Shown piece after piece: positions 17,398-62,263 of a stretch of DNA of 64,000 nt. The stretch covers positions 481,938 to 545,937 of the forward strand of contig CAWAOM010000001.1 of NCBI GenBank assembly GCA_963783695.1, in the 5' to 3' direction. Every line of letters starts with the position of its first letter. Positions within the stretch are counted from its first letter, which is position 1. The notes under the pieces were generated by a model. That model made no database searches, had not been told where the DNA came from, and was given only the letters and a program-made list of their open reading frames with translations. Made by a program: the position numbers and the translations under genes. Source of the DNA: an uncultured Gammaproteobacteria bacterium (GTDB taxonomy: Bacteria; Pseudomonadota; Gammaproteobacteria; Steroidobacterales; BM003).

Positions 17398-17481
17398 CGT
17401 CGCGGCATACCAGGGAGTGTGACGCACGTCACGAATCACCTTGTCGTTTCTGCCTTATTCTTGTTCTCGGCGAAAAAAGAC

Positions 17482-41330: not shown

Positions 41331-42935
41331 ATGGACAAATCCGAGTCGAATCAACAGCTTCCTTGCAACGTTACCGGGCCGGTGTGTGCCGAGTTCGAAC
41401 CCATATTGTCTGCGGGCGCGCTTGAGTTTATCGCGCTATTGACGCGCCGTTTCCGCCCCCGGGTGGCGCAGTTGCTGGAAGCGCGAGAGCAGCGCCAGGC
41501 GCGCCTGGATGGCGGTGAGATGCCCGGCTTCCTTGCCGAGACCCGCGAGATTCGCGAGTCTGACTGGCGCGTCACTACCGTGCCGGCCGATCTTCAGGAC
41601 CGTCGCGTGGAAATCACCGGTCCCACCGAGCGGAAAATGGTAATCAATGCGCTCAACTCCGGTGCGCGCGTATTCATGGCTGACTGCGAGGATTCGCTGA
41701 GCCCGACCTGGGACAATATCGTCCGCGGTCAGATTAATCTCCGTGATGCCGTTGATCGCAGTATCGAGTTCACCAATCCCAACGGCAAGCAATACCGCCT
41801 TAACCCGGATATCGCGACATTGATCGTGCGTCCGCGCGGCTGGCATCTGAACGAGAAAAATATTGCCGTGGATGGTGAGGTCGTGCCGGGCGCATTCGTC
41901 GATTTCGGTCTTTACCTCTTTCACAACGCGCGCACGCTGATTGATGCCGGTACCGGGCCCTATTTTTATCTGCCCAAACTGGAGAGCCATCTTGAGGCGA
42001 GATTGTGGGCGGATGTGTTCAGGTTCAGCGAAGAACATCTTGCCTTGCCGGCATCGACAATCAAGGCGACCGTGCTGATCGAGACGATACTCGCTGCATT
42101 CGAGATGGACGAAATCCTCTATGAGCTGCGCGATTTTATCGTCGGGTTGAACTGCGGGCGGTGGGACTACATTTTCAGTTTCATCAAACGCTTCCGCAAC
42201 AATCCGCAATTCGTGATGCCTGACCGTCATGATGTCGGGATGACGCGTCATTTCCTGCGCTCTTATTCGCAGCTTCTGATCAAGACATGTCATCATCGCG
42301 GCGCTTTTGCGATGGGTGGGATGGCCGCGCAGATTCCGATCAAGAACGATCCGGAGGCAAACGAAATCGCGCTCGAAAAAGTGCGCCAGGATAAAGAACG
42401 TGAAGCCGGAGACGGGCACGATGGCACCTGGGTGGCACACCCGGGCCTGGTGCCGATTGCCATGGAGATTTTCGACCGCCACATGCCGCAGGCAAATCAA
42501 CTCGACCGGTTGCGTGAAGATGTCACTGTCGACGCGGCCGATTTGCTCAAAGTGCCACACGGCGAGATAACCGAAGCTGGCGTTCGCAGCAACATCAATG
42601 TCGCCATTCAGTACCTTGCGGCGTGGCTTGACGGCAACGGTTGCGTGCCGATCAACAACCTGATGGAGGATGCGGCAACAGCCGAGATCAGCCGTGCCCA
42701 GATCTGGCAGTGGCTGCGCCACCCCGGCGGGGTTCTCAGCGACGGCAGACGGGTCACCATCGAGTTGTTTGACGGACTGATGAGCGAGGAGATGGAGGCG
42801 CTGGCCGAGCAACTCGGCCAGGATGTCTTCGCTGCGGGCAAGTACGAGCAGGCCCGCGATCTGATGCGCGAGATTACTGTGGCTGATGAGTTTGTTGAGT
42901 TCATCACGCTGCCGGGTTACGAACGAATCGATTAA
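41331..42935 (+). CDS. aceB: Malate synthase A
   Basis: 534 aa from the ATG at 41331. [43 protein letters not shown] and [12 protein letters not shown] motifs. Confidence 0.95.
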
Positions 42936-42969
42936 GACGTATTTCACGATTACCGCAGGAGAAGAGAGC

Positions 42970-44250
42970 ATGAAGAGCGCTGAGCAGTTGCAAAAGGAAT
43001 GGCAGGAAAGCCCCCGTTGGGCAGGCGTGGAACGCCCGTACACCGCCGCGGATGTGCTGCGCCTCAGCGGCACGGTGCAGATCGATCACACGCTCGCACG
43101 CCTTGGCGCCGAGAAGCTGTGGGGGTATCTGCAGGAGAAGGAATTCACCAATGCCCTCGGTGCGCTGACCGGCAACCAGGCAATGCAGCAGGTCAAAGCC
43201 GGCCTGAAAGCGATCTACCTGTCCGGCTGGCAGGTCGCGGGCGACGCGAACCTGTCCGGCGAGATGTATCCCGACCAGTCGCTTTACCCGGCGAACTCGG
43301 TGCCGGCGGTTATCAAGCGCATCAATAACACACTGATGCGGGCCGATCAGATTCATCATGCCGAAGGTGACGACAGCGTCGACTGGATGCAGCCGATCGT
43401 GGCTGATGCCGAGGCTGGCTTCGGTGGTGTGCTCAACGCTTTTGAACTGATGAAACAGATGATCGAGGCTGGCGCGGCCGGCGTGCACTTCGAGGATCAG
43501 CTGTCGTCGGCGAAAAAATGTGGCCACATGGGCGGCAAGGTCCTGGTGCCGACCCAGGAGGCAGTGAACAAGCTGGTTGCCGCCCGCATGGCGGCCGACG
43601 TGTGTGGTGTGCCGACTGTCCTGGTTGCACGCACCGATGCCGATGCAGCCAACCTGCTTACTGCCGATGTCGATGAGCGTGATCGTCCGTTTATTCAGGG
43701 CGAACGCACCGCCGAGGGTTTCTTCCGGGTCAATGCCGGTCTCGACCAGGCGATTTCGCGCGGCCTGGCCTACGCGCCGTATGCCGACCTGATCTGGTGC
43801 GAGACTTCGGTGCCTGATCTCGACCAGGCGCGCAAGTTCTCCGAGACCATCCGCAAGGAGTTCCCGGAACAAATGCTGGCCTATAACTGTTCGCCGTCGT
43901 TCAACTGGAAACGTCACCTCGACGACGCCACGATCGCGAAATTCCAGCGTGAACTGGCGGCGATGGGTTACAAGTTCCAGTTCATTACTCTGGCCGGTTT
44001 CCACGCTCTCAACTACAGCATGTTCCAGTTGGCCTCTGGCTACCGCGATACGCAGATGAAGGCCTATGTAGAGCTTCAGGAAGCGGAATTTGCGGCCGAG
44101 AAAGACGGCTACACCGCGACCAAGCATCAGCGCGAGGTCGGTGCCGGTTATTTCGATGCGGTCACGCAGGCGGTTACTGCGGGCACCAGTTCGATTACCG
44201 CTTTGGCCGGATCGACCGAGGAAGAGCAGTTCGAAGAGGCGACGGGCTAA
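42970..44250 (+). CDS. aceA: Isocitrate lyase
   Basis: [13 protein letters not shown] signature, [14 protein letters not shown] and ADLIWCETS. The ATG at 42970 lies 34 nt after aceB. Confidence 0.97.
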
Positions 44251-44277
44251 ACCGACGCCGGCTGGGTAAGATTGCCG

Positions 44278-44311
44278 ATGGGGCGGACGCATGAGTCCGC
44301 CCCATTGGTTT
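44278..44311 (+). terminator. Putative Rho-independent terminator after aceA
   Basis: Perfect 11-bp stem atggggcggac/gtccgccccat with loop gcatga, followed by an interrupted T-tract tggttt. Confidence 0.45.
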
Positions 44312-44336
44312 GGATTGACAGCAAACGGGTAGGACT

Positions 44337-46124
44337 ATGAGCGATTACTACGCGCCAACGCGCGATATGCGTTTTCTGATTCACGATGTTCTTGATCTCG
44401 AGTCGGTCAATGCGCTTCCGGGTTACGAAGAAGCCAGCGCCGATATCGTTGACGCCGTCCTCGAAGAGGCAGGGTTACTTGCGAACGGCGTGCTCGCGCC
44501 GACCAACAGGCTTGGCGACACTCAGGGTGCCCGCGTCGAAAACAACGGGGTCATAGTCGCTGACGAATTCAAAGAGGCTTATCGCCAGTACCAGGAAAGC
44601 GGCTGGCCGGCCTTGTCCATGAAGCCGGAGTACGGAGGCCAGGGACTGCCGCATCTGATCGGCACCGCGGTCGAGGAAATGTGGCAGTCGGCCAATCTCG
44701 CATTCTCGTTGTGTCCGCTGCTGACCCAGGGCGCTATTTCGGCGATTTCGGCGCATGGAAGCCAGGATTTGAAAGACACCTATCTCGAGAAAATGGTCAG
44801 CGGCGAATGGACCGGCACGATGAATCTAACCGAGCCGCAGGCCGGTTCGGATCTCGCCGCACTGCGCTGCCAGGCGCAGCGTGAGGGCGACCATTACCGG
44901 ATCACCGGGCAGAAGATCTATATCACCTGGGGCGATCACGAGATGACCGACAACATCGTTCATCTTGTGCTGGCACGACTGCCCGACGCGCCTGACGGGG
45001 TGCGTGGCATCTCGTTGTTCCTGGTGCCGAAATTCCTGGTCAATGGCGACGGCTCTCCGGGCGAGCGCAATGACGTCTACCCGATCTCGGTTGAACACAA
45101 GCTCGGCATCCATGGCAGCCCGACCTGCGTGATGGCCTTTGGCGGTAAAGGCGAGGGTGCAATCGGCTACCTGGTGGGAGAGGAAAACAAGGGCCTGGCC
45201 GGCATGTTCACGATGATGAACCATGCCCGACTCAGTGTTGGTCTTGAAGGCGTGTCGATTTCCGAGCGCGCTTACCAGCTTGCGTTGAGCTATGCGAAGG
45301 ACCGGGTTCAGGGCAACGTGCCGGGTAAGCCCGGGCGTGTCACGATCATCAACCATCCGGATGTGCGGCGCATGCTGATGTTCATGAAGGCGCAGACCGA
45401 AGCCATGCGTGCGCTTGCTTATTCCACTGCCGCGGCAATGGATCATGCCGAACATGGCAGCGATCCCGAGTTGAGCGCGGTTCGCCAGGCACGCGTCGAT
45501 CTGCTGACTCCGATCGTAAAAGGCTGGTGCACCGAGATGTGCCAGGAAGTGACTTACTGGGGTATCCAGATTCACGGCGGAATGGGGTTTGTCGAGGAAA
45601 CCGGTGCTGCGCAGCATTATCGTGACGCTCGAATCACGACGATCTACGAGGGAACGACCGGCATCCAGGCCAATGATCTCGTCGGGCGGAAATTGCTGCG
45701 CGACGGCGGCAAGGCAATGAGCGAGTTGCTTGCCGAGATTCGCGATTTTATCGATGCGACCGATGGCAGTGTGTCGCCACATCTCGATTGCATGTTGACC
45801 GAGCTGGGGCGCGGTGTCGATAACCTCGAGACTGCCGTAAAGAGCATTTTTGCCGGGTACGAAGCCGATATGTCGCTACCGGGTTCGGTGGCGTTCAGCC
45901 TGTTGATGCTGGGAGGTGTCGTGACCGGCGGTTACGAACTGGCGCGCAGCGCGGTCAGGGCCGCGGCCAAGCTCGAAGCCGGCCAGGACAAGGACTTTTA
46001 CGAGGCCAAGCTCGTCACGGCGCGGTTCTTCGCCGAGCATATCCTTACCCGCGGCCACGGCTATCTCGCGTCAGTTAGCGCCGGTTCGGCCAGCACAATG
46101 GGACTGAGCGAGGCGCAGTTCTAG
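44337..46124 (+). CDS. Long-type acyl-CoA dehydrogenase (~595 aa, with C-terminal extension domain)
   Basis: ACAD N/M/C domain pattern (GWPALSMKPEYGGQGLP, LTEPQAGSDL, ITWGDHEMTDNIVHLVLAR, YEGTTGIQANDLVGRK). Confidence 0.9.
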   Translation: MSDYYAPTRDMRFLIHDVLDLESVNALPGYEEASADIVDAVLEEAGLLANGVLAPTNRLGDTQGARVENNGVIVADEFKEAYRQYQESGWPALSMKPEYGGQGLPHLIGTAVEEMWQSANLAFSLCPLLTQGAISAISAHGSQDLKDTYLEKMVSGEWTGTMNLTEPQAGSDLAALRCQAQREGDHYRITGQKIYITWGDHEMTDNIVHLVLARLPDAPDGVRGISLFLVPKFLVNGDGSPGERNDVYPISVEHKLGIHGSPTCVMAFGGKGEGAIGYLVGEENKGLAGMFTMMNHARLSVGLEGVSISERAYQLALSYAKDRVQGNVPGKPGRVTIINHPDVRRMLMFMKAQTEAMRALAYSTAAAMDHAEHGSDPELSAVRQARVDLLTPIVKGWCTEMCQEVTYWGIQIHGGMGFVEETGAAQHYRDARITTIYEGTTGIQANDLVGRKLLRDGGKAMSELLAEIRDFIDATDGSVSPHLDCMLTELGRGVDNLETAVKSIFAGYEADMSLPGSVAFSLLMLGGVVTGGYELARSAVRAAAKLEAGQDKDFYEAKLVTARFFAEHILTRGHGYLASVSAGSASTMGLSEAQF

Positions 46125-46142
46125 GTCTTTGGCGCGGTGGCT

Positions 46143-46685
46143 CTAGCCGAAAAGTCGCCAGCCGCGGTGGCGCCGGCGTCGCATTGCGTCGCGGCGCCTC
46201 CGCATTCTGTCCTGCAGCATTTCGCGTTTCGCGATAAGCCAGTCGCGACGGGTGAAGTCGTGTTGCGCTACCCGCCGTTCGGAACGGAAAGCGCAGAAAT
46301 CCTCATAAGCATGGATCTCGTGCTGGAGTTCGCGGACCAGTAGTTCGATCAGTATTGCATCGTCGAGAAAACCCAGAACCGGGGTACCGTCGGGAATCAG
46401 GTCCTCTCCGGTATTGAGGTAGGCCAGTGCGGTCAGCACCCGACGCCGATCTTTCGTCGGCAGCTGCCAGTCGCTGTCTTCGACCATCCGAATCAACAGC
46501 TCGACCCGGTTGAGGCGTTCCTCGACGAATTTGGGAGGCTTCGCCTGGGACGCCGAATTAACCAGACTCCGTGCCGCGGCGATTACCGCCACGGGCTCGT
46601 CCAGCACAGGTTTCGCCTGGGCCATGATCTGGCGCAGATGTTTGAGGTCGGAATCGTCCAGGTCAAACGAAATTCGAACTGTCAC
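46143..46685 (-). CDS. DUF1232 (YkvA-like) domain protein
   Basis: LTALAYLNTGEDLIPDGTPVLGFLDDAIL matches the DUF1232 core motif (DLIPD..P.lGflDD). Confidence 0.65.
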   Translation of the reverse strand: MTVRISFDLDDSDLKHLRQIMAQAKPVLDEPVAVIAAARSLVNSASQAKPPKFVEERLNRVELLIRMVEDSDWQLPTKDRRRVLTALAYLNTGEDLIPDGTPVLGFLDDAILIELLVRELQHEIHAYEDFCAFRSERRVAQHDFTRRDWLIAKREMLQDRMRRRRDAMRRRRHRGWRLFG

Positions 46686-46736
46686 TGCATTGCTCTCCTG
46701 CGTTTATTGGTTTTTTGCTGTTACAGGCCGGGATGC

Positions 46737-47648
46737 CTAAGTGTAGTTCGCAGCAACGGGGTCTGCAGGGACGATTCGAAGCAGGGAGAATTGTGCAGTG
46801 CGTTTGCTGGTTTCGGCGCCGCAGCTGGCCCGGGACTGAATGTACTCCCGTCTGACCGCGATAGTGAATGACTTCCCGGTTGCGCCACAGCGGAATGTGG
46901 TGGTGCTCGTGTCCTGGTCGGGATCGCTGCTGTCGATGAGCTGCAGGCGGTCAGGGTTCGCCAGTACCCGCGAATTCAGCAGAAAACACTCCGCCGCCTG
47001 CACCGATGGCGCATAGGCACTGCGTCCGCGCAGATGCTCAAGGGCGCTATTACGATCGCCATGCATCGCCACGGCTTCGGCCGGAGACAGCCGCCCGAAA
47101 CACAACCCTTCGGGCAGCGACATGATGACGGGCGCCAGCCGGTGGCCGCCAAGATGGGTCGTCTGCCACACGTCTTGCGGCGCCACCGCACGCAACGCGT
47201 CGTAAACCGGACCGCCAAATCGTGCGCAACAGGCATCGCGTCGGCCGTTGGTGCATACCAGCACAATCGGTTGCAGGTTCACGGTGTCGCACTGGGGCAG
47301 GGGATCCAGGCGGAGATGGGCGAGTTCGTGGTGCTCCATGACGGTCGTCCCTACCAGGCGCTGCCGGGTGGGGCGGGTGTCGGCAACCGCCAGCAGAAGC
47401 GGCGCGTTGCGCCTGCCGCGCTGCTTGATGAACTGGGTTCGCGGCCGCAGCCCGTTTTTGCGCAGGGCCTGCTCCTGATCCTCGATCCAGGCGCCCACAG
47501 CCGCCGGCAAAGAGTTGTCGGCGATGGCCCTGGCGTTCCACGACGCGCGGTATTCAATCAGGATCCAGATGTCGGCTTGCGGCGCCGAGCCAAAAAGTGA
47601 CTCTCCGGCGGTCAGGGCTGATTGCGAGCAGTAGACATCTTTTGTCAA
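46737..47648 (-). CDS. Sucrase/ferredoxin-like (thioredoxin-like [2Fe-2S]) family protein
   Basis: VLVCTNGRRDACCARFG and THLGGHRLAPVIMSLPEGLCFGRL motifs. Start proposed at TTG 47648, preceded by ACGGAGGC plus a 5-nt spacer. The ORF is open up to 47747. Confidence 0.65.
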   Translation of the reverse strand: MTKDVYCSQSALTAGESLFGSAPQADIWILIEYRASWNARAIADNSLPAAVGAWIEDQEQALRKNGLRPRTQFIKQRGRRNAPLLLAVADTRPTRQRLVGTTVMEHHELAHLRLDPLPQCDTVNLQPIVLVCTNGRRDACCARFGGPVYDALRAVAPQDVWQTTHLGGHRLAPVIMSLPEGLCFGRLSPAEAVAMHGDRNSALEHLRGRSAYAPSVQAAECFLLNSRVLANPDRLQLIDSSDPDQDTSTTTFRCGATGKSFTIAVRREYIQSRASCGAETSKRTAQFSLLRIVPADPVAANYT

Positions 47649-48111
47649 TTTTGCCTCCGTCGTTTTGGACAGGCAGATGAATTCGGCACGACCGCAGCCC
47701 GTTATCGCCCACGACGATTCGCGCGTGGGTGGCCAGCGACCGGTCACTGAAAACCCGAATAGTAGCGCACTAGGGGAGTCGCACTACCGCCAGTTCACCG
47801 GGCTGTTTTTTCGCGACTGACCTTCTGCTGTTGCGGTTGTTGTTTTTTCCGTGCTGGCCGCTGCGCGCCGGCCCGTCATGGTTATCCTGCCGGTGTCGTT
47901 CGCGCCTGCGGATCTGCTCCAGCGCGGTTGGAGTGGAGCGTGGGGTAGGGAGCGATCAGCCGCCATAACCGGCGCGGACGACAGCCATGCCGCGTCGAGC
48001 TGCCGCGATACAGAATGCTAGTATCCCGGGTGCTCGTGCGGTTCCTGGCACCGTGCGGCAGCGCCGGCGCATACGTGATTGGCGGGGCAACCGATTTCCG
48101 GGGTACGTTGG

Positions 48112-49986
48112 ATGAAAAATATTGTCGCGATCTGGCGCCGTGTGGGAACAGACTTTGTGTTTGCATGGCGCGCCCTGTTTGCGACCGATGTTCTCTACAA
48201 ACTGCTTGCTTTGGCGGCGCTGGTGCCGCTGGTTGCCGTAATGCTGAGGCTGTTCCTGCATCTGTCCGGGGATGTGGTCAAGGCGGATCAGGACATCCTG
48301 TTCTTCATACTGAGCCCGCTTGGCATCGTGACCTTTATAGTCATTGGCGCGGGTCTTGTCACCGTGCTTGCGATGGAAACAGCGTGTCTGTTGTGTATCG
48401 CCCGGGCAGCGCGACGGCGCCTGCATTTACCGGTCCTGGCGGCACTCCGGTTTACGTTGTCACGGGCACACGCAGTATTGCGGGTGACTGCGAGACTGGT
48501 GGTCCGATTTCTGGTGCTTGCGCTGCCTTTTCTGGCGCTTGCCGCGCTGATTGTCTTCTGGCTGCTCAGCGAGCACGACATCAATTTCTATCTTGCGGAA
48601 AAGCCACCGGCATTTCTACTCGCCGTGGCCTGCGTTGGGTTTGTCCTTCTGGTGCTGGCAATTGTCGTGATACGCAAGCTCGCCTCGTGGTTTTTTGTTT
48701 TGCCGCTGGTAATGTTCGAGGGATTCTCGCCTGCGGCAAGCTTTGCTGAAAGTGAACGACGCACGGCGGGCCAGCGTCGCGAAATCGCGTTTCTGGTTGC
48801 TTCCTGGTTTGTGGTTTTTGCCATGTTGTCGAGCATGTTGCTCGGCCTCGTGGGGGAAGGCGCCGCGATTGCGACAGGCCTTTCCGGGGACCGGGTGCCA
48901 ATGCTCGTCACTGCGCTGGCCGTCGTGCTCTTCGCCTGGTTTGCGGCAAGCCTGTTGCTCAACCTTCTGACCAACTGTTTTTTTGCTTTGTTTGTCGCAG
49001 ACCGGTATTTCGACTCAGCCGACAGCGACGGGCGGGTCGTTGCGAAACTCGATGCCGATGCGGCGACGCAAACGGGGCCGCTTGCTGCCCGGGCCGTGAC
49101 TTTTATCGTCGTGCTCGTAACCCTCATAGCGGTTGGGGCGGGTCTGATATTGCTGCGTGGGGTACAGATTACGAAACCCGTGACAGTGGTGGCCCATCGT
49201 GGCGCGGCCGGGCATGCGCCGGAAAACACAATGGCGGCTATCGAAACCGCGATAGAAATGGGCGCCGACTCGGTTGAGATAGATGTACAGGAAACGTCCG
49301 ACGGTGTTGTTGTAGTCATCCACGACAGCGATCTGATGAGAATTGGTGGCGTGCCGCTCAAGGTCTGGGATGCTAACTACGCCGAGATTTCGTCGCACGA
49401 CGTCGGCAGCCGCTATGGCGGCGAATTTGCCGACCAACGGGTGCCTACTCTCGATGAAGTGCTCGAGCTGGTGGATGGACGGGCGCGGCTGACAATCGAA
49501 CTCAAATACTATGGTCACGATCAGAATCTCGAACAACGCGTGATCGATCTCGTCGAGGCGCGCGGCATGGCATCCGAGGTCGTCGTGATCTCGCTCAAAT
49601 ACGCGGCGTTGCAAAAGATCCGGGCGCTGCGCCCGGAGTGGAGACTGGGTCTGCTCACCGCGCGCGCGATGGGTGACCTGACCCGGGTTGATGTCGATTT
49701 CCTTGCCGTCAACGTCGGTATGGCGTCGAGACGTTTCATTCGCCGTGCCCACGCCGCCGGCAAAGAAGTCTATGTATGGACTGCCAACGATGCCGGCACT
49801 CTGTCGAAAATGATCAGCCACGGCGTCGATGGGCTGATAACCGACTATCCTGATCTCGCCCGCGGCGTACTCCGCCAGCGCGACGGACTGGGCAGTGTTG
49901 AGCGACTGATGCTCGATCTCGGCCTGTACTTTGGCCTCGACCCCGCGCCGGTCGATATTGCCGCTGAGACGGCTGGCGAGTACTAA
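48112..49986 (+). CDS. Membrane-anchored glycerophosphodiester phosphodiesterase family protein
   Basis: N-terminal multi-TM domain (~330 aa) followed by a GDPD domain VVAHRGAAGHAPENTMAAIETAIEMGADSVEIDVQETSDGVVVVIHD. ATG at 48112. Confidence 0.88.
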   Translation: MKNIVAIWRRVGTDFVFAWRALFATDVLYKLLALAALVPLVAVMLRLFLHLSGDVVKADQDILFFILSPLGIVTFIVIGAGLVTVLAMETACLLCIARAARRRLHLPVLAALRFTLSRAHAVLRVTARLVVRFLVLALPFLALAALIVFWLLSEHDINFYLAEKPPAFLLAVACVGFVLLVLAIVVIRKLASWFFVLPLVMFEGFSPAASFAESERRTAGQRREIAFLVASWFVVFAMLSSMLLGLVGEGAAIATGLSGDRVPMLVTALAVVLFAWFAASLLLNLLTNCFFALFVADRYFDSADSDGRVVAKLDADAATQTGPLAARAVTFIVVLVTLIAVGAGLILLRGVQITKPVTVVAHRGAAGHAPENTMAAIETAIEMGADSVEIDVQETSDGVVVVIHDSDLMRIGGVPLKVWDANYAEISSHDVGSRYGGEFADQRVPTLDEVLELVDGRARLTIELKYYGHDQNLEQRVIDLVEARGMASEVVVISLKYAALQKIRALRPEWRLGLLTARAMGDLTRVDVDFLAVNVGMASRRFIRRAHAAGKEVYVWTANDAGTLSKMISHGVDGLITDYPDLARGVLRQRDGLGSVERLMLDLGLYFGLDPAPVDIAAETAGEY

Positions 49987-50330
49987 ACCGCGCTGTAGCA
50001 TCCAGATCCCGCGCCGCCCTCTCCGGGCACGTTGACCCGTTTTATTCCCCCTAATTGGCAGTACGTAGAAGTCCGTAATCGCCTTGTAACTTCACCCTAT
50101 TGCGAAGATTGCTGCAGCGCGGAAAATGCGTCCTGAGCATACATGAAGAAAAGTTAATTTAGTTAAACCTAAATAAGAATTATTCGCAACTACGCAAATG
50201 AGAACCAAAGGTAAACAGGGGCCGGCCCTATCGGCCCGGGCTTGCGCAAACAGAGGATCGCGGGTTCGCCGGATTGAATGCCAGACCGGTTCGCCCATTG
50301 GTAAAACTTCTCAACTTGGGGGTTATTAGC

Positions 50331-51986
50331 ATGAACGCACTGAGGCAAGGGAAATTCCGGCTTGCCACGCTCATTTCCATTGCCATATTCGCTTTCGCCG
50401 TGGCCGGTTGCGACGATGGTGACGATGGTAATGACGGGCCGCCTGGACCAGCCGGTGCAGACGGTTCTGATGGGGTGGCCTGTTGGGACCTCAACGAGAA
50501 CGGTGTGGGGGATCTTCCGGATGAAGATCTCAACGGCGATGGCGTCGTCGACGTCTTAGATTGCAACGCATTGGCGAGCGGGGCCTACGATGCCGAGGCA
50601 CTGCACACGGGCTATTTCACCGAGAAACCTTATGAAGGCACGCAGTCGTGCCTGAATTGCCATGGCGACGATCGGCGACGACATGCTTGGCAAGGCCCAT
50701 TTCACCTGGAAGGGCGCTGCGTCAGGGGATCAAAGGCTTCGAGGCTGATCGGCACGGCAAGACCGATCTGATCAACAATTTCTGCATTGCGGTCCCGAGT
50801 AACGAGGGCCGTTGCAGCCAGTGCCATGCCGGTTACGGTATACGCTGACGATTCGTTCTATTTTCGGCGATCCGCAAAGCGGTGGACTGCCTGGTCTGCC
50901 ATGACCAGTCCGGTACCTACAAGAAGGCAACGACCACCGCCGGTCTGCCCGAGGAAACGGCGTTGATCTGCAGATGGTTGCGCGCAGCGTTGCGCAAAAT
51001 GGCGGTGTCCCGACCATCAATAACTGCATCGACTGCCATGCCAAAGCCGGTGGCGGAGACAACGTCAAGCACGGCGATCTGGCGCTGTCGCTGGCCGAAA
51101 CCACGCGCGAATACGATGTCCACATGGGCACCGATGGCGGCGATTTTGAATGCGTTGCCTGCCACCAGGTCAAAAGGACGGCCGATGGTGCACAGATCGA
51201 TCACGGGATCGGTGGCCAGGAGTATCCATTCGCTTGACCAGGGCGAAGATGGAAGACCTGCATGGATTGCCACGGCGATCGCGCCAACATCCATGCCGGT
51301 AAATCTGTAGAAGGGATTGTAAGCCTGCATACGACGCTTGCCTGCCAGGTGTGCCATATCCCGGCAATTGCGCGTGAAACGTCGACTAAGACCGAATGGT
51401 ACTGGGAAACGGCGGGGCAGGACATCCCGGCGGAAGATATCCCGAAGTCCGAGGACGGACGTAGACATGTACGACAAGAAGAAGGGCAACTTCGTCTGGA
51501 CCAAGAACGTTCGTCCCGAACTTCTCTACCATGACGGCGAGTGGAACCGCATGATGATCAACACCAACGAGCAGTACACGAGCGTGCCGGTCGATCTCGG
51601 TTCCCCCTCGGCCGACTACAACACGCCGGGTGCGATGATCTATCCGTTCAAGAGGATGATCGGCAACCAGGTCGCCGACGCCGGCAACAACACGATGCTG
51701 GTGCCGCACCTGTTTGGCCCGAAAGGCGGGCCCAACCCGTACTGGAAGGTTTTCGACTGGGATCTCGCGCTGCAGGACGGCGCCGCCTATACCGGTCAAA
51801 CCTACACGGGTGCGTTCGAGTTCGTGGACACCTTTATGTACCTGTCAGTCAACCATGAAGTGGCGCCGAAAGAACAGGCGTATCGGTAACGACGGCGCCT
51901 GTGGTGATTGCCATGGCGACGACAAGATCGATTGGGCCGCCCTTGGCTGGGATAACGACCCGGTTCAAGGTGGAACCCGGCCGTAA
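50331..51986 (+). pseudogene. Octahaem c-type cytochrome lipoprotein (tetrathionate-reductase/Otr-like family), disrupted by multiple frameshifts and in-frame stops
   Basis: Lipobox FAVAGC after the ATG at 50331. There are eight CXXCH motifs, spread over three frames: 50649 (frame 0), 50813 (2), 50888 (2), 51025 (1), 51151 (1), 51259 (1), 51343 (1), 51900 (0). Coding pieces lie in ORFs 50274-50771, 50648-50848, 50882-51310, 50974-51237, 51262-51534, 51338-51889 and 51714-51986. Confidence 0.8.
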
Positions 51987-52013
51987 CCAACCCCAGGCAT
52001 AGCCTGATCAACC

Positions 52014-52047
52014 GGCGCCCGCGACAAAATCGCGGGCGCCTTTTTTT
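52014..52047 (+). terminator. Rho-independent terminator after the cytochrome gene
   Basis: Perfect 11-bp GC-rich stem ggcgcccgcga/tcgcgggcgcc with loop caaaa, followed by ttttttt. Confidence 0.85.
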
Positions 52048-52208
52048 GTGGCCAGGGCACTGCGATCCTGGTGGGCACAAAGATCGCTATATGTCGCCTT
52101 GACGACATTATCGGCGTGCCGGAGTGTGTACGATCCTCGCGTTATTGCATGATGGCGTTTAGCGGGTCACACCCCTCCAGACTGAAAGGACTTAGCAGCG
52201 GCGCCGAT

Positions 52209-52232
52209 GGGGACAGGACGTCCCCTTTTTTT
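52209..52232 (+). terminator. Second, orphan Rho-independent terminator-like hairpin
   Basis: Stem ggggac/gtcccc with loop aggac, followed by ttttttt. No credible ORF ends just upstream. Confidence 0.55.
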
Positions 52233-52290
52233 ATGCGTGATTTCCGGTTGCATTGGTCCGCTGAATGCTCGTGGCAGGGCCCCGCATTGT

Positions 52291-52863
52291 TCAGGAGCCG
52301 CCGGGCCGTTGCACGTAGCTCTGAAAGCCCACGTCGTCGGTACCGCTGAGCGACAACGACACCCAGTTCGAATTGACGTCATCCATCGCCCATCCTCGGC
52401 CACCAGGATAAGAGTCGACGGGAACGCCAGGAAGAATGCCGCAGGATCCTGTCGGGTTACTCAGCACGAGTGCCAGTTGATCTCCGGCGCTAACGCGAAC
52501 GCGGCCGCCAAACGAAATCGAGGTGAGATCAGTGCTGACGATTTCAGGGAAGTGTCCCGCGCGATATCTCCGTGTCGCGATTACATTCGATCCGGGCACG
52601 CCCGAACTCGCGTCGATGTCGCGAATTTCTGCGATGAGTCTTCCGGACTCACAACCGACTGGCACGCGAATTTCCGTAAGCCGGCCGTCAAGGCCGACGG
52701 TTAGCGTCTGTGCGATCGCTTGCGCGTAAAGGCCACCAATGGCAAAAGTCGAAGGTGCCGCAGGGTCTCCCGGGTTTTGTTGATCGAGAACCGGCGCCGC
52801 GGCATAGACCGGGGCCGCCGCCAGTGCGCCGAGAACTGCGAGTCTGGCCAATTTGTTTTTCAT
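52291..52863 (-). CDS. Secreted hypothetical protein (190 aa)
   Basis: Clear signal peptide MKNKLARLAVLGALAAAPVYAAAP. The coding frame has no competing annotation. No recognisable domain. Confidence 0.6.
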   Translation of the reverse strand: MKNKLARLAVLGALAAAPVYAAAPVLDQQNPGDPAAPSTFAIGGLYAQAIAQTLTVGLDGRLTEIRVPVGCESGRLIAEIRDIDASSGVPGSNVIATRRYRAGHFPEIVSTDLTSISFGGRVRVSAGDQLALVLSNPTGSCGILPGVPVDSYPGGRGWAMDDVNSNWVSLSLSGTDDVGFQSYVQRPGGS

Positions 52864-53147
52864 GGACGTTATCTCCCAGGCGGAATCGAGGTTCCTCTCT
52901 CTAGAAGATGTAGACCAGTTTTACCGTGTTCGCCAGCTGGATATTTTTTTTGCTTCAGTGCATTAACAAGTGCATTTGCATGGAGTTGGACCGCACAGGC
53001 CACGCCGGTGGCGGCAGCCAATAGCGATGCTGCCTGCGGATATCTTGCGCAGAAAATTGACCAGATCCGCAAAAACCGGCGGGCATCGAGCCGATTCGCT
53101 CAAATGCCCGCCGGGTCAAGGTCTGGCCTGAAAACCGGCCGGGCGTA

Positions 53148-53342
53148 TTACTTGCCCTTCAATACGTCGGCCGCCTTGTCGACGAGGTCCGCAGCGGAAT
53201 CGCTGATCGATTCCACTGCATCCTTGACACTGCCAGTAGCCTGCTGCGTCTTGCCTTCGGCTTTCATTTTGTCATCGTCGAGCAATACGCCGCCCGCTTC
53301 CTTGAGTTTGCCTTCCATTTTGTCGACCGTTCCGCTTGACAT
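53148..53342 (-). CDS. CsbD-family stress-response protein
   Basis: MSSGTVDKMEGKLKEAGG...KAEGKTQQATGSVKDA is the typical CsbD repeat pattern. Alternative upstream ATGs at 53354 and 53378. Confidence 0.8.
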   Translation of the reverse strand: MSSGTVDKMEGKLKEAGGVLLDDDKMKAEGKTQQATGSVKDAVESISDSAADLVDKAADVLKGK

Positions 53343-53518
53343 AGCTCGCTCCATTGAAGTTTGTGAAAAATAGCGCACTCGACAATTAACATCGAGCGGG
53401 GTGTACGGTAGCGGGTTCGTCAGCCTTTCGCAGATGGATGCCGACTTGCCCGGATCGCTATGCTCCGATCGGGCCGCATGTCCCTTCGCGCCGGAGGTTG
53501 CGTGACTCGTTATCCCTG

Positions 53519-53827
53519 TCAGGCCTTGCTCCAGCTCACGCTGTGGCCACCTTCCGCCGCGCGGCGGAGAAGCTCTATCAACGGAAACGCGCGCTGGTGC
53601 AGTGAAACCGGTGATTTCTTTTCCGGGTCCTCTTCATCTTCGTCCGCCTCGGGCGCCTCCGGCGCATCGGCGACGGCTTTTTCCAGCCGGGCGAGTGCCG
53701 TTGGAATGTCCTCGGCAAGAATTGCGCTGGGGATCGTCCCGCTGTGGCCCATCATGTGGAGCAGCGTTTCGGCGGTTTCTTCGAACATTGAAAAACTGCC
53801 GACATGGCTGTCAAATTTTACAAGCAT
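53519..53827 (-). CDS. DUF1840-like small protein
   Basis: MLVKFDSHVGSFSMFEETAETLLHMMGHSG...acidic linker...VSLHQRAFPLIELLRRA resembles DUF1840 proteins as recalled. Unverified. Confidence 0.5.
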   Translation of the reverse strand: MLVKFDSHVGSFSMFEETAETLLHMMGHSGTIPSAILAEDIPTALARLEKAVADAPEAPEADEDEEDPEKKSPVSLHQRAFPLIELLRRAAEGGHSVSWSKA

Positions 53828-53855
53828 GTTTCCCTTTGCCTCCTGAATTGAACGG

Positions 53856-53887
53856 AAAAAGCCGCAAGCTGACGCTGGCAGTTGCGG
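53856..53887 (-). terminator. Putative terminator after the WS/DGAT gene
   Basis: On the minus strand: ccgcaa-N14-ttgcgg followed by cttttt. An alternative 9-bp stem gctggcagt/actgccagc overlaps it. Confidence 0.4.
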
Positions 53888-53941
53888 TTTCGGATAAGCG
53901 ACTGCCAGCCATTGTCGTCGGTCTTCGATTCGATAGCGTTG

Positions 53942-55345
53942 CTATTTTGCGTCGCGCACTCGCGGCGTGAAAACGGCCTGCTCGAGTTCGACAAATGCGT
54001 CTTCGATATAGGTGGCAAGCTTGGCGACATCGCGCAGTTCGCGGGTGGCCAGCAGACCGAAGTGCAAGGTGCCGGCATAGCTGTAAAGCGTGATATTTAA
54101 ATGATTGCCCGGCATCAGCGTACTGACGGGACACATCTCCGTCATTCGCGCGCCTTTGAGATATAGCGGCTTGCGCGGCCCCGGAACATTGGACACGAGG
54201 GTATCGCTGATCGGTGGCAGAACGTTGTTGAGCTTGAGCATTTCGGTCAGCTGAGCGGCGACGCCAAGAAGAATCGAATACTGTGCTACCGCCGCCGGGG
54301 GCACGCCGTCAATCTGGTTGCGGACGTTACGCAACGTGAAGCCGATCTCACGCAGGCGCTGGTAGGGGTCGTCCGTTCGATTGGCGAGTTCGACCGTCAC
54401 AATACCGATCTTGTTGCCACCCTTGGAATCGTTTTCATCGCGCAGGTTAACCGGCATCTGGATCGATATCGGACGTCGCAGGTCCGCGCCGCTCTCCGCA
54501 ATGTACCGGTGCAGGGCGCCGTCTATACAGGTCAGCGCAACGTGGTTGAGAGTCGCCCTGCACATATCGCGGATCCTCTGCACCCGATCCATCGAAACAC
54601 TGGCCTTGGCAAACTGGCGCGCAGCAGTGACTTGCCCGGTCAACGGCGTGCGCCCGTCCGAACGGAAGGGCAACGATACCGCGTTCTTGGTCAGTCCGAG
54701 TTGTTCGAGCCCCAGTTGCATCGACAGCTTGGCAATGCCCGCAGTGGTTTTCAGCTGTTCCAGGGAGCCGCGCAGCACGGTGGCAAGCAGGGTTTTCGCA
54801 TCAGTGCCGGCTCGCCGGCTGCGCTTTCCGGGCGAGCTGTGCGACACCCATACCGGGTTGATAGTTTTGGACCTTGGCGACTCGGTCAGGCTATGCGCCG
54901 TCCAGCTCGTCAGCGTAATGCCGTCTGCGTAGGAGTGATGAATTTTGAAATAGATCGCGAAGCGGCCGCCAGCAACACGGTCGATCATATGAAATTGCCA
55001 CAACGGTTTACTGCGATCGAGCATTGGGCCATGTAGTTCGGCTATCAGCTCATACAGGGCGGCGTCGTCCAGCACCTTTTTTGGTCGATGAAAGAACAGA
55101 TGCTGATCGATGTCGAAGTCGGTGCACTGTTGCCATTGCGGGCCACCGAGCGCGGTGAAATTGATTACCTGGTCGAACGGCTCGCCCGGCTCGTCGAATT
55201 CCAGGAATTCCTCGTACAGATTCGCCACGAATCGCGCCGGGCTCTTGGCCGGCCGCTTAAATATCATCAATCCGGCAACGTGCTTCGGGCTATCTTCTGA
55301 TTCCGTGACGAAAAAGGCGAGATCGAGCAGCGACAATTTTTTCAT
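53942..55345 (-). CDS. Wax ester synthase/diacylglycerol acyltransferase (WS/DGAT)
   Basis: Catalytic HHxxxDG motif (KIHHSYADGITL). N-terminal LSLLDLAFF...SPKHVAGL pattern and C-terminal NVPGP motif; 467 aa. Confidence 0.9.
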   Translation of the reverse strand: MKKLSLLDLAFFVTESEDSPKHVAGLMIFKRPAKSPARFVANLYEEFLEFDEPGEPFDQVINFTALGGPQWQQCTDFDIDQHLFFHRPKKVLDDAALYELIAELHGPMLDRSKPLWQFHMIDRVAGGRFAIYFKIHHSYADGITLTSWTAHSLTESPRSKTINPVWVSHSSPGKRSRRAGTDAKTLLATVLRGSLEQLKTTAGIAKLSMQLGLEQLGLTKNAVSLPFRSDGRTPLTGQVTAARQFAKASVSMDRVQRIRDMCRATLNHVALTCIDGALHRYIAESGADLRRPISIQMPVNLRDENDSKGGNKIGIVTVELANRTDDPYQRLREIGFTLRNVRNQIDGVPPAAVAQYSILLGVAAQLTEMLKLNNVLPPISDTLVSNVPGPRKPLYLKGARMTEMCPVSTLMPGNHLNITLYSYAGTLHFGLLATRELRDVAKLATYIEDAFVELEQAVFTPRVRDAK

Positions 55346-55607
55346 TTATAGAGGTCCATCAGGTTCGTTTTGTGAGCGGCCCCGGCATGACCGGCTGGCG
55401 TATGTTATCTATTCTAGCGGCGAATCGGGACGCCGACAGGTTAGCGGCTGGTTACGAGCCGGATCGCAATGCCGCCGGAATCGTCCCGGCGCGATAATTG
55501 CTCCGGCCGGCAAGAGGTTCAGTATCGCATGCGCAACGGCGGCATTGGTCGACGCAGTCCCTAAGAGTATGCGAAAGTAACCGGCTGAACTCTGCGCCAC
55601 CGCCATG

Positions 55608-55636
55608 TTCGAATTCGAATAAGGTCGCGGCGACCT
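55608..55636. promoter_or_regulatory. Two adjacent palindromes upstream of the RND operon (candidate operator)
   Basis: Perfect 12-bp palindrome ttcgaattcgaa (55608-55619) and 7+1+7 palindrome aggtcgc-g-gcgacct (55622-55636), 22 nt before the ATG at 55658. Confidence 0.3.
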
Positions 55637-55657
55637 CGAATTTTAGGGATTTCTCAT

Positions 55658-56869
55658 ATGAAGCGGAAGCTCGCCCGTGTAGCGCTTATTGCATCGATCT
55701 TCCTCGTGGCTATTGTTGGCGCGGGAATGCTGGCCAAGATGAAGCCGCCGCCGGAGAAAAAAGAGAACACCGATGTCGACCTCCTGGTCCAGGTAGCGCC
55801 GCTGAAGACGGAAACGGTGACTTTCACAGTGCAGAGCCAGGGTAATGTCCGGCCCCGTACCGAGACGTTACTGAGTGCCGAGGTGTCCGGCGCGATCGTG
55901 GAGATATCTCCCAAGTTCATTCCGGGTGGAGTTTTTGCAAAAAACGAAGTGTTGATGCGAATTGACCCGACCAACTACCGGGTTGCGGTCGATCAGGCCG
56001 AGGCCGTGCTTGCCCAGCGGCAAATTGAGTACGACGGCGCTGTCAAGCTGCGCAAGCAAGGATACCGCGCCGAGGCGGAGCTGGCTTCGGCCGCGGCGGC
56101 GCTCGAAACCGCCAGGGCCGACCTCGTGCGGGCAAAGCGAAATCTCCAACTGACCGCGATTCGCCTGCCGTACGAGGGCATGGTGCGGAGCAAGGATGCG
56201 GATCTCGGCCAGTATGTGACCGCCGGCAGCCGGCTCGGTGTCACGTTTGCCACCGACTATGCTGAAGTGCGTTTGCCTTTGACCGACCAGGACCTCGCAT
56301 TTGTCGAGCTGCCGGGTGCGGGCCAGATCGAGAAGTCGGGCAGTGCGAGCGGCCCTGAAGTGATTCTGTCTGCGGTCCAGCGCGGCAAGATGCAGCAATG
56401 GAGCGGAAGAATCGTGCGCAGCGAGGGCGTCGTTGACGAGAATACCCGGGTTACCTATGCGGTCGTGCGAATCGAAGATCCTTACCGGCGCCACGCGTCC
56501 GATACTGAATCGACGCCATTGCCGGTTGGCACGTTTGTCTCCGCAGCGGTAGCGGGAAACAGCGCCGAAAACGTGATTCGCGTGCCGCGTTCGGTGATCC
56601 GTGGTAATGGCCAGATCGTGGTCGTCAACGACGACAATCGTCTCGAAATTCGCGACGTCGACATTCTGCGTTCGGATTCGACGCATGCGTATCTCAGCGG
56701 CGGCGTGGCGGCCGGCGAGAGAATTGCAGTGACCTCCATTGAAAACCCGATCAACGGCATGCGGGTACGAACCGGCGACGCGGACGAGGATGCGGGCGTC
56801 GAAGACGACGGTACCGAGTTGGCGACGGGCGAAGGGGTGGATGAAACCGTCGCCAAGGGCGATGAATAA
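55658..56869 (+). CDS. RND efflux periplasmic adaptor (membrane fusion protein)
   Basis: N-terminal anchor, barrel-sandwich/hairpin pattern (AEVSGAIVEI...coiled-coil AQRQIEYDGAV...LETARADLVRAKRNL...IRLPYEGMV). Immediately upstream of the RND permease. Confidence 0.9.
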   Translation: MKRKLARVALIASIFLVAIVGAGMLAKMKPPPEKKENTDVDLLVQVAPLKTETVTFTVQSQGNVRPRTETLLSAEVSGAIVEISPKFIPGGVFAKNEVLMRIDPTNYRVAVDQAEAVLAQRQIEYDGAVKLRKQGYRAEAELASAAAALETARADLVRAKRNLQLTAIRLPYEGMVRSKDADLGQYVTAGSRLGVTFATDYAEVRLPLTDQDLAFVELPGAGQIEKSGSASGPEVILSAVQRGKMQQWSGRIVRSEGVVDENTRVTYAVVRIEDPYRRHASDTESTPLPVGTFVSAAVAGNSAENVIRVPRSVIRGNGQIVVVNDDNRLEIRDVDILRSDSTHAYLSGGVAAGERIAVTSIENPINGMRVRTGDADEDAGVEDDGTELATGEGVDETVAKGDE

Positions 56870-56881
56870 GAGGTTGGCGCG

Positions 56882-59800
56882 ATGAAGGGACAGCCGGGAG
56901 TCACGACTGAAACAGGCCTGATTGCCTGGTTTGCCAGCAACCATGTGGCGGCAAACCTGCTGATGTTGATGATCATTGCGTTCGGTGTGGTTTCGGCGTT
57001 CACGATACGCAAGCAAACGACTCCGGACTTCGAGCTCAACACGATCCAGGTGCGCGTGCCATATCTCGGTGCGGCGCCGCAGGAAGTTGAGGAAGGGGTC
57101 GTCGTCAAGATCGAGGAAGCGATCCAGGACATCGACGGCATTACCCAGATAGATTCGGTCGCCAGCGAGGGAGAGGGTTCGGTTGTGGCGGAAGTCGCGA
57201 CCGGCGAGGACATCAACGAAATCCTCAGCGAGATCAAGACCCGCGTCGATGCAATCTCGACATTTCCGAACCTCACCGAGAAGCCGGTCATATATAAGCA
57301 AGAAGTGCCGATTCACGTGGTTTTTCTATCGATCTACGGTGAGATGGATGCATTCGCCCGCAAGACGCTTGCCCAGCAGGTGCAAAACGAGTTAATGGTC
57401 CTGCCGGAGGTCAACCAGGTCCAGTTTCTCGGTGACCGCGACTACGAGATCAGCGTCGAGGTGCCTGAACAGACATTGCGGCAATACGGCTTGTCAATGA
57501 GCGAAGTGTCGCAGGCGATCCGCGATTCTTCGCTCGATCTTCCGGGCGGGACGATCAAGACCGAGGGCGGCGATATTCTGCTGCGGACGGAAGGCCAACG
57601 GTATACCGGGCAGGAGTTTTCGCGGCTGGTGCTGCGGACTTTTCCGGACGGGACGCGGCTGACTCTCGGCGATATTGCAACGATACAAGACGGCTTTGTC
57701 GAGACCGATGGCTATGGCCGTTTCGACGGCCAAACGACGGCGATCCTGCGGGTACTCGCCGGCGGCCAGCAGAACGAACTGAAAACTGCCAAGGCGGTGC
57801 GTGAGTACGTCGAAAAGAAGGCCAAGACGCTGCCTGAAGGTATCAATATCGATGTCTGGATCGACCGCTCGCACTATCTGCAGGGCCGGCTCGACATGAT
57901 GATGAAGAACATGCTGCAGGGTGCCTTGCTGGTATTTATCGTACTGTCATTGTTCCTGCGATTTAAGGTTGCGGCGTGGGTCATTGTCGGTATCCCGATC
58001 ACGTTCTTCGGCGCTTTGTGGCTGATGCCGCTTGGACCGTGGCCGGTGACTATCAACATGATCAGCCTGTTCGGGTTCATACTCGTTTTGGGGATAGTCG
58101 TCGATGACGCGATCATCATCGGCGAGAGTGTCTATACCCGGATACGCGCCGACGGGCAGACACTGGATAACGTGATTCGCGGTGCGAAGAAAGTCGCGGT
58201 ACCGGCAACGTTCGGGGTGCTGACGACAATGGCGGCCTTCGCACCGATGCTGTTTATCGGCGGCGTTGTCGGGCCGTTTTTCGAGGCCATGTCGATGGTC
58301 GTGATTTTGTGCCTGTTGTTCTCGTTGATCGAGTCGAAGCTGATCCTTCCGGCGCATCTCGCGCACGCAAAAATCACGCCGCAGAATGAGGCCGAACTTT
58401 TCAAGCCGTTTCGGGAGACGCCGCTGCGGTTGTGGCTCGTGCGCCCCTTTCAGCGATTGAACTGGCGTATTCAAAATGGGATGCAGTCGTTTGTCGAGAA
58501 GGTCTATCGACCGCTGCTGGAGAAGGCGCTCGATAATCGGGGTATTACTTTCAGTCTTTTTGCTGCGATTCTTATCCTGACCATCGGTGTCATGCAAAGC
58601 GGTATCGTGCGGACGGTGCTGTTTCCCGATGTACCGGGTGATTTCATCCGGGTCGAGTTGCAAATGCAAAACGGGACTGCACCACAAGTCCGCAACGAGG
58701 TGATGAGCCGGATCGAGAATGCCGCGCTGGAACTGAATGCCGAGTACGCTGCCGATAACCCGGGTGTCGACGAGCCGATCAATCACATCGGCGTGTTTAC
58801 CCGGGGCGACACCGGCGGAGTAGTGTTTGCCGAGATGCCGATGAACGAGGACCGTCCGCTGAACGGCGACGATATCGAGGTCATGTGGCGCGACCGGGTT
58901 GGGGAGATCCCCGGGGTCAAGGAACTGACATTTTCCGGTGGTGACAATGTCGGCGGCGGTGCCGCACTCAGTTTCAACCTGACCGGATCCAGCTTTGAGT
59001 CGCTTGGCGGTGCGGCGCAGGAACTCGAAGAGAAACTGGCCGAGTACGACGGCGTATTCGATATCCGCAATTCACTGAATGCGGGCGGCGAGGAGATCCG
59101 GCTCGCAATCAAACCCGAGGCCGAGGCGCTCGGCATCACGATGTCCTCGCTGGGGCGCCAGGTACGCCAGGCGTTTTACGGCGAGGAAGCACAGCGTATC
59201 CAGCGCGGCAAGGACGAACTCAAGGTGATGGTGCGCTACCCGCTGGAAGAGCGGCGCTCGCTTGCGGATCTCGAGAACATGCGTATTCGCACGCCGGGCG
59301 GCGATGAGGTGCCGTTTGCCTCGGTTGCCGAATTGTCTTTTGGCGAAAGTTATTCGAGCATTACGCGGCAGAATCGAAAACGCGTCGTGACGGTGTCGGC
59401 CGACATTGACCCGACAGTTGTCGAGCCTGGCGAAGTTTTGAAAGAGATCACCGAAGACTACCTGCCACAGTTGCTCTCGCGTCACCCTGGTGTCGGCTAC
59501 GAACTCGAGGGAGCGAGCAGGGAGGAAATGGAGCTGGTTCGCAATCTGACCCTTGCCTCGATTGCGGCGATGTTCCTGATCTTCGCTCTGATTGCGATCC
59601 CGTTGCACTCGTATGTGCAGCCGATGATCATCATGTCGGTGATCCCGTTCGGCCTTATCGGCGCGGTGGTCGGGCATATCGTGATGGGCAAGGCGATCAG
59701 CATGTTCTCCTTGTTTGGCCTGATCGCGCTTGCGGGTGTTGTGGTGAACGATAGTCTGATCATGGTGGATTTCATCAACAAGGCACTGCAAAACGGAGTG

Positions 59801-60109: not shown

Positions 60110-60205
60110 ATTTCGCGGCGCCATGCAGCTTCGCGAGCTGCCGGGGCAGGGCGAGGACTCCGGGTCGTTGTAGTAGCGTCGAGAAGCGATCGACCCTGAG
60201 CGGCG

Positions 60206-62062: not shown

Positions 62063-62201
62063 GATGGAGCCTTCGAGTCAGGGCGATGTTCGCTGACGCC
62101 AGAACATCGCACGCCGCGGGGAAAGATACGCTCGCGAGTGTACGTCGCCGCGTCGCCAAAGGGAAATTGCGATGCCTCCACCGGGGTCTTTTTCAGGGCA
62201 G

Positions 62202-62230
62202 AAAAAAGGGGCTGCGCTGCAGCCCCTTTT
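62202..62230 (-). terminator. Rho-independent (bidirectional-looking) terminator after the OmpA-like gene
   Basis: 8-bp stem ggggctgc/gcagcccc with a 3-nt loop, flanked by aaaaaa upstream and tttt downstream on the plus strand (tttttt after the stem on the minus strand). Confidence 0.8.
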
Positions 62231-62263
62231 CCCGCCAGTGGGTGGTTGTGAAGACCGCAACGG

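Follow-up and report, generated by a model that had tools for sequence, protein, structure and literature searches.

The window analysed here is a 64,000-nt stretch of a contig of 1,187,671 nt that is deposited in NCBI, ENA, and Logan and appears to be unannotated, as no protein accession is listed for its proteins. On its forward strand, positions 50331-51986 encode a lipoprotein-type octahaem cytochrome c that begins with ATG and was read by three-frame translation (Table 1). This translation matched exactly what an earlier note, made from the letters of this DNA, had said of the 8 CXXCH haem motifs, namely that they lie in frames 0, 2, 2, 1, 1, 1, 1, and 0, and it also returned the FAVAGC lipobox and the frame-2 block YDKKKGNFVW...NHEV described there. 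The N-terminus is identical to that of the intact orthologue P0001, and the Cys-bracketed module of the acidic linker was found by a scan of genome contigs to be N-terminal in many unrelated proteins as well, archaeal ones included.

Table 1. Features of the octahaem cytochrome c locus, in window positions. Inserted bases are given as capitals in their sequence context.
Feature	Position	Strand	Remarks
Octahaem cytochrome c gene, Otr family	50331..51986	+	1656 nt as written; 1644 nt / 547 codons without the 12 extra bases
Lipoprotein signal peptide	50331..50411	+	Lipobox FAVAG/C, Cys codon 27; putative, from motif in the translation
Acidic Gly/Asp-rich linker	50409..50620	+	Cys-bracketed D-x-D-x-NGDG module (CWDLNENGVGDLPDEDLNGDGVVDVLDC)
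Haem motif 1, CLNCH	50649..50663	+	Frame 0
Event 1, +1	50670	+	gcgacGatcgg; missing in five orthologues and L036
Event 2, +1	50721	+	gctgcGtcagg, or one G of a GGGG run; missing in orthologues and L036
Haem motif 2, CSQCH	50813..50827	+	Frame 2; preceded by HGKTDLINNFC
Event 3, +1 A	50840	+	acggtAtacgc; missing in orthologues and L036
Event 4, +1 T	50859	+	cgttcTatttt, placement ambiguous by a few nt; missing in orthologues and L036
Event 5, +1	50875	+	atccgCaaagc, equally G at ~50881; missing in orthologues and L036
Haem motif 3, CLVCH	50888..50902	+	Frame 2
Event 6, +2	50955..50956	+	cgaggAAacgg; relative to L001, L032, L007, and L036 (would be -4 relative to L034 and L005)
Haem motif 4, CIDCH	51025..51039	+	Frame 1
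Haem motif 5, CVACH	51151..51165	+	Frame 1
Event 7, +1 C	51226	+	agtatCcattc; within scrambled stretch of L036
Event 8, two extra G	51248..51252	+	gcgaaGatgGaagac; one +2 or two +1; within scrambled stretch of L036
Haem motif 6, CMDCH	51259..51273	+	Frame 1
Haem motif 7, CQVCH	51343..51357	+	Frame 1
Event 9, +1	51462	+	ggacgTagaca; column empty in 4 of 5 orthologues and L036
Event 10, +1	51884	+	cgtatCggtaa; missing in orthologues and L036
Haem motif 8, CGDCH	51900..51914	+	Frame 0
Intrinsic-terminator-like hairpin	52014..52050	+	11-bp stem with 10 G-C pairs, then T7; 28 nt past the stop codon

Family assignment and likeness to Shewanella OTR

Joined by hand, the translated pieces match TIGR04315 (NCBIfam, tetrathionate reductase family octaheme c-type cytochrome; curated cut-off 375 bits) with 404.5 bits and E = 6e-121 over profile positions 15-438 of 440, and the C-terminal half also matches Pfam Cytochrome_cB (PF11783). 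The sole solved relative, the OTR of Shewanella oneidensis (1SP3), aligns with the window protein over its residues 16-435 of 443 at E = 1e-90. The pieces are colinear throughout and the haem motifs are colinear with those of 1SP3 and of 120 homologues, in the order and spacing conserved in TIGR04315, which upholds both the Otr family that the earlier note had suggested and its premise that the pieces make up one colinear homologue.

The window protein shares with Shewanella OTR the order of the 8 CXXCH motifs, and its segment HGKTDLINNFC aligns to RGKKNSINNFC of 1SP3, the first K of which is chain position 56 by manual count. Lys56 was reportedly described by Mowat and colleagues in 2004 as an unusual ligand of the active-site haem in that enzyme, and at the level of residue conservation in the alignment, its equivalent is retained in the window protein. 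Unlike OTR, the window protein carries around 100 additional N-terminal residues (lipoprotein signal plus acidic Gly/Asp linker with its Cys-bracketed Asp-rich module), and the gene as written has a reading frame that is interrupted 10 times.

Our search returned 3506 homologues at E <= 1e-20, the best 120 of which are 527-568 aa long. Judged by these alignments, the assignment to TIGR04315 and the Otr family is sound, with the joined pieces matching far beyond chance, and the window gene belongs as an ordinary member to a family of which thousands of intact homologues exist.

Ten frame-changing events, all of them insertions

We aligned the window gene at the nucleotide level with MAFFT to 5 intact orthologues (loci L001, L032, L034, L005, and L007). 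This alignment resolved the frame switches, of which the earlier note had counted about 10, into exactly 10 window-specific events, every one a net insertion, that add 12 bases within 50670-51884; deletions and nonsense changes are both at 0. Seven events are missing from all 5 intact orthologues and event 9 from 4 of them (the distant L007 has a C in that column, in a poorly aligned stretch), while event 6 is an insertion relative to 3. The resulting frame path, 0-1-2-0-1-2-1-2-1-2-0, reproduces the frames of the haem motifs, and the use of 3 frames within 50838-50890, to which the note had drawn attention, is real.

As written, frame 0 runs into a stop at 50769-50771. Removal of the 12 bases leaves a stop-free ORF of 547 codons (1644 nt), and because no stop is left in it, the TGAs at 50846 and 51235 are by-products of the frameshifts: they had been taken for in-frame stops in the note, but with the frames correctly assigned, both are out of frame. 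The inserted bases sum to 0 mod 3 so that the last segment is back in the frame of the first, which we treat as a coincidence with P = 1/3. A methylation motif behind errors was ruled out since the 10 contexts have no common motif.

Orthologues, synteny, and a mosaic allele

The closest homologues come from MAGs of Woeseiaceae, “Chromatiales”, and other Gammaproteobacteria, with 85, 84, and 80% identity for the closest 3 among the matches listed. The intact orthologues P0001-P0003 fall at 80-85% protein identity to the window protein and P0004 at 71%, all with 548-552 aa. The orthologous loci from MAGs labelled Woeseiaceae or “Chromatiales bacterium” (L001, L005, L032, and L034) have the N-terminal lipoprotein module in common with the window gene, but read in one uninterrupted frame where the latter has its extra bases. 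The neighbourhood in L001 and L032 is much like that in the window, with genes for an acyl-CoA dehydrogenase, DUF1232, Suc_Fer-like, and GDPD proteins ahead of the cytochrome and for a 190-191-aa protein, DUF1840, WS/DGAT, and the start of an RND pump behind it; a CsbD neighbour is found in L001 only and an additional Polyketide_cyc2 gene in L032. Overall, L001 is syntenic with 40344-61972 of the window at 84% DNA identity.

Identity is unevenly spread along the gene. Codons 0-50 (~50331-50480) are 98% identical at the DNA level to L001, L034, and L005, loci that are otherwise ~84% identical, and codons 250-350 are nearest to L001 while codons 400-450 are nearest to L034 and L005. By this pattern, the window gene is a mosaic, and it forms a polymorphic, recombining patch.

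Searches for the window allele itself gave little. Among species representatives, the scan of genome contigs returned relatives of at most 84% identity. No intact near-identical protein (>85% identity) was found in the protein database, a 154-aa query over events 7-9 returned only 9 distant fragments of at most 68% identity, and when JGI metagenome contigs were scanned with exact or degenerate DNA patterns, there were 0 hits to the allele. No exact product turned up for the ORFs 50331-50771, 51338-51889, 51467-51889, 51262-51534, and 50974-51237, a result that tells nothing either way, since it depends on the start codons chosen by the gene caller and single-run contigs are fragmented.

A second assembly broken at different places

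The locus is also present in a second assembly (contig CALOFQ010000027.1 of NCBI GCA_942492655.1; L036), for which an accession look-up found no literature. Compared in blocks of 500 columns over 46195-50195 and 51693-62864, window and L036 share 99.0-100% identity, and most of these blocks show no difference at all (exactly 100%); the sole block outside this range is SNP-dense and lies at ~57193 (95.4%). An identical copy of the protein encoded just 3' of the cytochrome gene (52291-52863, reverse strand) is found on L036 as well. Over 42312-46195, L036 is only 70-90% identical with many gaps and is in this respect an imperfect witness. Window and L036 may also go back to one and the same sample.

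Within the cytochrome gene, the two differ by around 40 SNPs as well as by indels; AAT at 50655-50657 and CCAGGAG at 51216-51222 are examples of SNPs diagnostic of the window. Events 1-6, 9, and 10 are absent from L036, which has insertion-free, orthologue-like sequence there. Its gene keeps to frame 0 from ATG to stop apart from 85 scrambled nt at 51171-51255, over which the net shift is 0. In this stretch, the window follows the orthologues as far as events 7 and 8, and the 30 nt around these two events are thus intact in no assembly of the strain. The lesions of the window gene are therefore not reproduced as those of a pseudogene should be: L036 lacks 8 of 10, and the other 2 fall into its scrambled stretch. 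The coupling of indels with SNP clusters recurs elsewhere in L036, where -1 at 57269 and +1 at 57330, in a patch of SNPs at multiples of 3 nt, split an RND-pump gene that the window has intact. On the evidence of this comparison, the window and L036 represent essentially one strain assembled twice, with the cytochrome gene broken in both but not at the same places.

Since many of the SNPs between window and L036 are states found in other orthologues, each of the two is in part a genuine allele. An SNP between window and L036 lies within 6 nt of 6 of the 8 insertions for which L036 offers a comparison (P ~0.005 by a chance estimate). Furthermore, a contig from SRR22269795 that matches 48059-50250 stops one base short of the window/L036 SNP at 50251, which is what a graph bubble would give if one sample contained both variants, and another public-run contig breaks off at 51956, still within the 3' end of the gene. 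Public-run contigs break every few kb in the cytochrome region anyway.

Constraint on the repaired gene and the case for a pseudogene

With the 12 bases taken out, the translation scores 410 bits against TIGR04315, and the intact orthologues P0001-P0004 score 405-413. Compared to 120 homologues, the repaired protein retains all 106 invariant and 89 of 91 near-invariant (>=95%) columns, the 2 exceptions being D>E and K>R; this amounts to 195 of 197 conserved columns where intact controls retain 187-190 of 191-192. Its dN/dS relative to the orthologues is 0.14-0.18, compared to 0.11-0.22 between intact orthologues (Nei-Gojobori), so that neither measure shows the relaxed selection that a pseudogene should display.

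Substitutions make up the bulk of changes in natural mutation spectra and in bacterial pseudogenes, and the latter lean towards deletions. In contrast, the window gene has gained 12 bases and lost none, and its unique indels and unique substitutions stand at a ratio of ~1:1. We simulated neutral decay as random substitutions over the damaged span in 5000 trials that were scored for “no stop, no conserved-column hit”. With as many substitutions as inserted bases (12, or 1:1), this outcome had P = 0.011; with 24, 60, or 120, not one of the 5000 trials produced it.

These measures show no evolutionary decay of the window gene and lend no support to reading it as a pseudogene. The earlier note had argued for a real decaying respiratory gene, a conclusion that gives way before insertion-only lesions, a normal dN/dS and HMM score, and the lack of 8 of the 10 events in L036; its remark that indels without loss of motifs are odd was the right clue, as this is the signature of sequence error. 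A very recent pseudogene, formed by a clustered, indel-only burst or by import of a broken allele while the sister strain behind L036 stayed nearly intact, is unlikely but deserves to be weighed. The lesions are, after all, present in the deposited sequence, the remaining contig has proved accurate wherever a check is possible, the SNPs relative to L036 show that the window allele is partly genuine and distinct, and recombination tracts between the strains behind window and L036 exist elsewhere. Genuine pseudogenes of host-restricted or recently niche-shifted bacteria also combine several disabling frameshifts with intact neighbours, as is seen in the window. Unlike them, however, the window gene lacks nonsense and missense decay along with deletions, and the simulation rejects decay even at the 1:1 ratio. 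A single frameshift would already have been lethal to the gene, so that 9 more with no other damage would need a special mechanism, one that only inserts bases and leaves every conserved residue alone, and L036 has similar lesions at other sites.

A related possibility is that the extra bases are real and record an insertion-only burst of frameshifts with clustered SNPs across 1.2 kb of a recombination-prone cytochrome gene in one sediment strain. We consider this very unlikely; if true, it would point to a novel targeted or template-switch mutational process at the locus.

The damage is local

If the whole contig were error-rich, the cytochrome gene would be just one of many broken genes. Two observations lean this way, a second frame break in a 12-bp tandem-repeat gene at ~19052 and a T9/T8 homopolymer difference at 52944, the single mismatch in a 1640-nt match of 99.94% identity to a contig from public run ERR11523668. 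Against L001 over 40344-61972, however, many gaps fall into the cytochrome gene while most 200-column blocks within flanking genes are gap-free, in keeping with the statement of the earlier note that the damage is local. Other gaps relative to L001 lie in low-identity 200-column blocks, mostly at gene ends or in intergenic spacers as far as gaps were mapped to annotation. A Logan contig from ERR11523668 is 100% identical to the window over 4851 nt in the region where L036 is degraded; together, these 2 matches to public-run contigs indicate that the error is local. The remainder of the window is filled with long ORFs, and targeted Pfam checks for further broken genes left only the tandem-repeat gene suspect, while a GC3/ORF screen of the window for more broken genes was too unspecific at 60% GC. 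Generally poor sequence is thus hardly credible as an explanation.

Recoding of a correct sequence by repeated +1 ribosomal frameshifting or transcript editing, for which the consistent “extra base” direction and the shared frame of first and last segments might speak, can practically be dismissed given 10 sites in 10 unrelated contexts without a conserved shift site or a common slippery or stimulatory motif, single-frame orthologues (L001, L032, L034, and L005) that lack all 10 events apart from the ambiguous event 6, the ordinary length of the best 120 of 3506 homologues, and a near-identical strain (L036) without 8 of the events. We know of no bacterial system of repeated +1 frameshifting or editing that recodes a gene in this manner.

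Probable consensus error in a strain-variable patch

Very probably, then, the organism has an intact and functional gene of 547 codons for an Otr-family lipoprotein, and the 10 frame breaks are local errors in the assembly consensus. The relatives are annotated as MAGs and the source contig presumably stems from a metagenome assembly as well, with its length of 1.19 Mb and the absent protein accessions suggesting long-read technology. For long-read metagenome assemblies, indels are described as a main cause of frameshifted ORFs, and the collapse of strains into a consensus is documented (PMC8302730).

The errors probably arose because co-existing strains carry different recombinant alleles in the cytochrome patch and the patch consensus was backed by mixed-allele or sparse reads. 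Small insertions, often beside a true SNP, would then have survived polishing and left ~1% insertions in the consensus, though the exact assembler route to the extra bases is one that we infer. The window resembles long-read strain-collapse errors in that its frame breaks are confined to an SNP-dense polymorphic patch, that the protein is undamaged, and that a second assembly is broken elsewhere. It differs from the commonest reported long-read errors in that most insertions lie outside long homopolymers, and this speaks against consensus error, as does the fact that an insertion-only pattern is no platform's textbook error profile.

Implications for metabolic reconstruction

If the breaks were real, a sediment lineage that is abundant would have lost one of its options for respiration, namely the reduction of tetrathionate, nitrite, or hydroxylamine, and the mutational route to this loss would be odd. 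Most likely, however, the breaks are an artefact of assembly, and the gene beneath them is an ordinary Otr-family gene in a gammaproteobacterium of marine sediment. To annotate it as a pseudogene would then wrongly leave the MAG without an Otr-type reductase when its metabolism is reconstructed. As a practical rule, the combination of many frameshifts, no nonsense changes, unchanged dN/dS, and disagreement with a sister assembly points to consensus error in a strain-variable patch. For this MAG, our analysis chiefly cautions against an Otr-negative call.

Assembly differences and strain-level variation

The gene encoding a FecR-domain protein contains two 12-bp tandem arrays (see table), and the irregular unit between them is the site of a frame switch (junction at about 19045-19070). 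As a result, the first ORF (17419-19065) terminates there, and the GSDD array together with the C-terminal domain lies in another frame (ORF 18572-20092). The switch is either real or another consensus error, the second one, arising at a repeat. A homopolymer in the spacer that precedes the 190-aa gene differs in length: the window has T9 at position 52944 versus T8 in an otherwise identical contig (L037) assembled from the public run ERR11523668.

The sister assembly GCA_942492655.1, which is essentially of the same strain, matches window positions 42312-46195 at only 70-90% identity with many gaps (loci L036 and L038), and in this part its genes for malate synthase, isocitrate lyase, and acyl-CoA dehydrogenase are broken into pieces. 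By contrast, the same region is intact in the window and a 100% match to L035, another contig assembled from ERR11523668. This stretch of the public MAG is of low quality or chimeric.

Differences of another kind between the window and L036 are short patches of clustered SNPs, many of them spaced at multiples of 3 nt, within sequence that is otherwise identical. The patches look like recombination tracts between co-existing strains. In the patch at 57265-57400, a -1/+1 indel pair in L036 breaks the RND transporter gene of that assembly.

Features located in the window
Feature	Position	Context
FecR-domain protein gene	17419-20092	+ strand; two 12-bp tandem arrays inside
Array 1, GGTTCCGGTGAT x36	18619-19051	FecR-domain gene; reads GSGE/GSGD
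Array 2, GGGTCAGACGAC x13	19067-19224	FecR-domain gene; reads GSDD
Cys-bracketed acidic module, CWDLNENGVGDLPDEDLNGDGVVDVLDC	50409-50570	N-terminal part of cytochrome gene; preceded by collagen-like G-x-x stretch
Clustered-SNP patches versus L036	53018-53310, 56431-56467, 57265-57400, 59338-59845	

Conservation of the cytochrome locus

Gene order across window positions 40344-61972 is mostly kept in related Woeseiaceae-like species. Both L001 and L032, two loci with intact cytochrome orthologues, show the order malate synthase, isocitrate lyase, acyl-CoA dehydrogenase, DUF1232, Suc_Fer-like, membrane GDPD, Otr cytochrome, 190-aa unknown, DUF1840, and WS/DGAT. L001 further carries CsbD, an RND pump, and a DEAD-box helicase; L032, which stops within the first RND gene, has an additional Polyketide_cyc2 gene and no called CsbD.

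At the 5' end of the cytochrome gene, the RBS, signal peptide, and first 50-75 codons (about 50316-50555) share 97-98% DNA identity with L001 and two further orthologous loci (L034 and L005), whereas the remainder of these loci reaches only about 84% and the spacer upstream of the gene about 70%. This contrast suggests that the 5' cassette was recently exchanged or gene-converted.

Copies of the acidic module with 50-90% identity are found across many unrelated genomes (loci L010-L030), including Methanomassiliicoccales, Thermoplasmatota, Nitrosotenuis, Phycisphaerae, and Chitinophagales, and one Chromatiales MAG has two (L005 and L025). The module thus seems to be a widespread element at protein N-termini, either a tether or Ca-binding-like.
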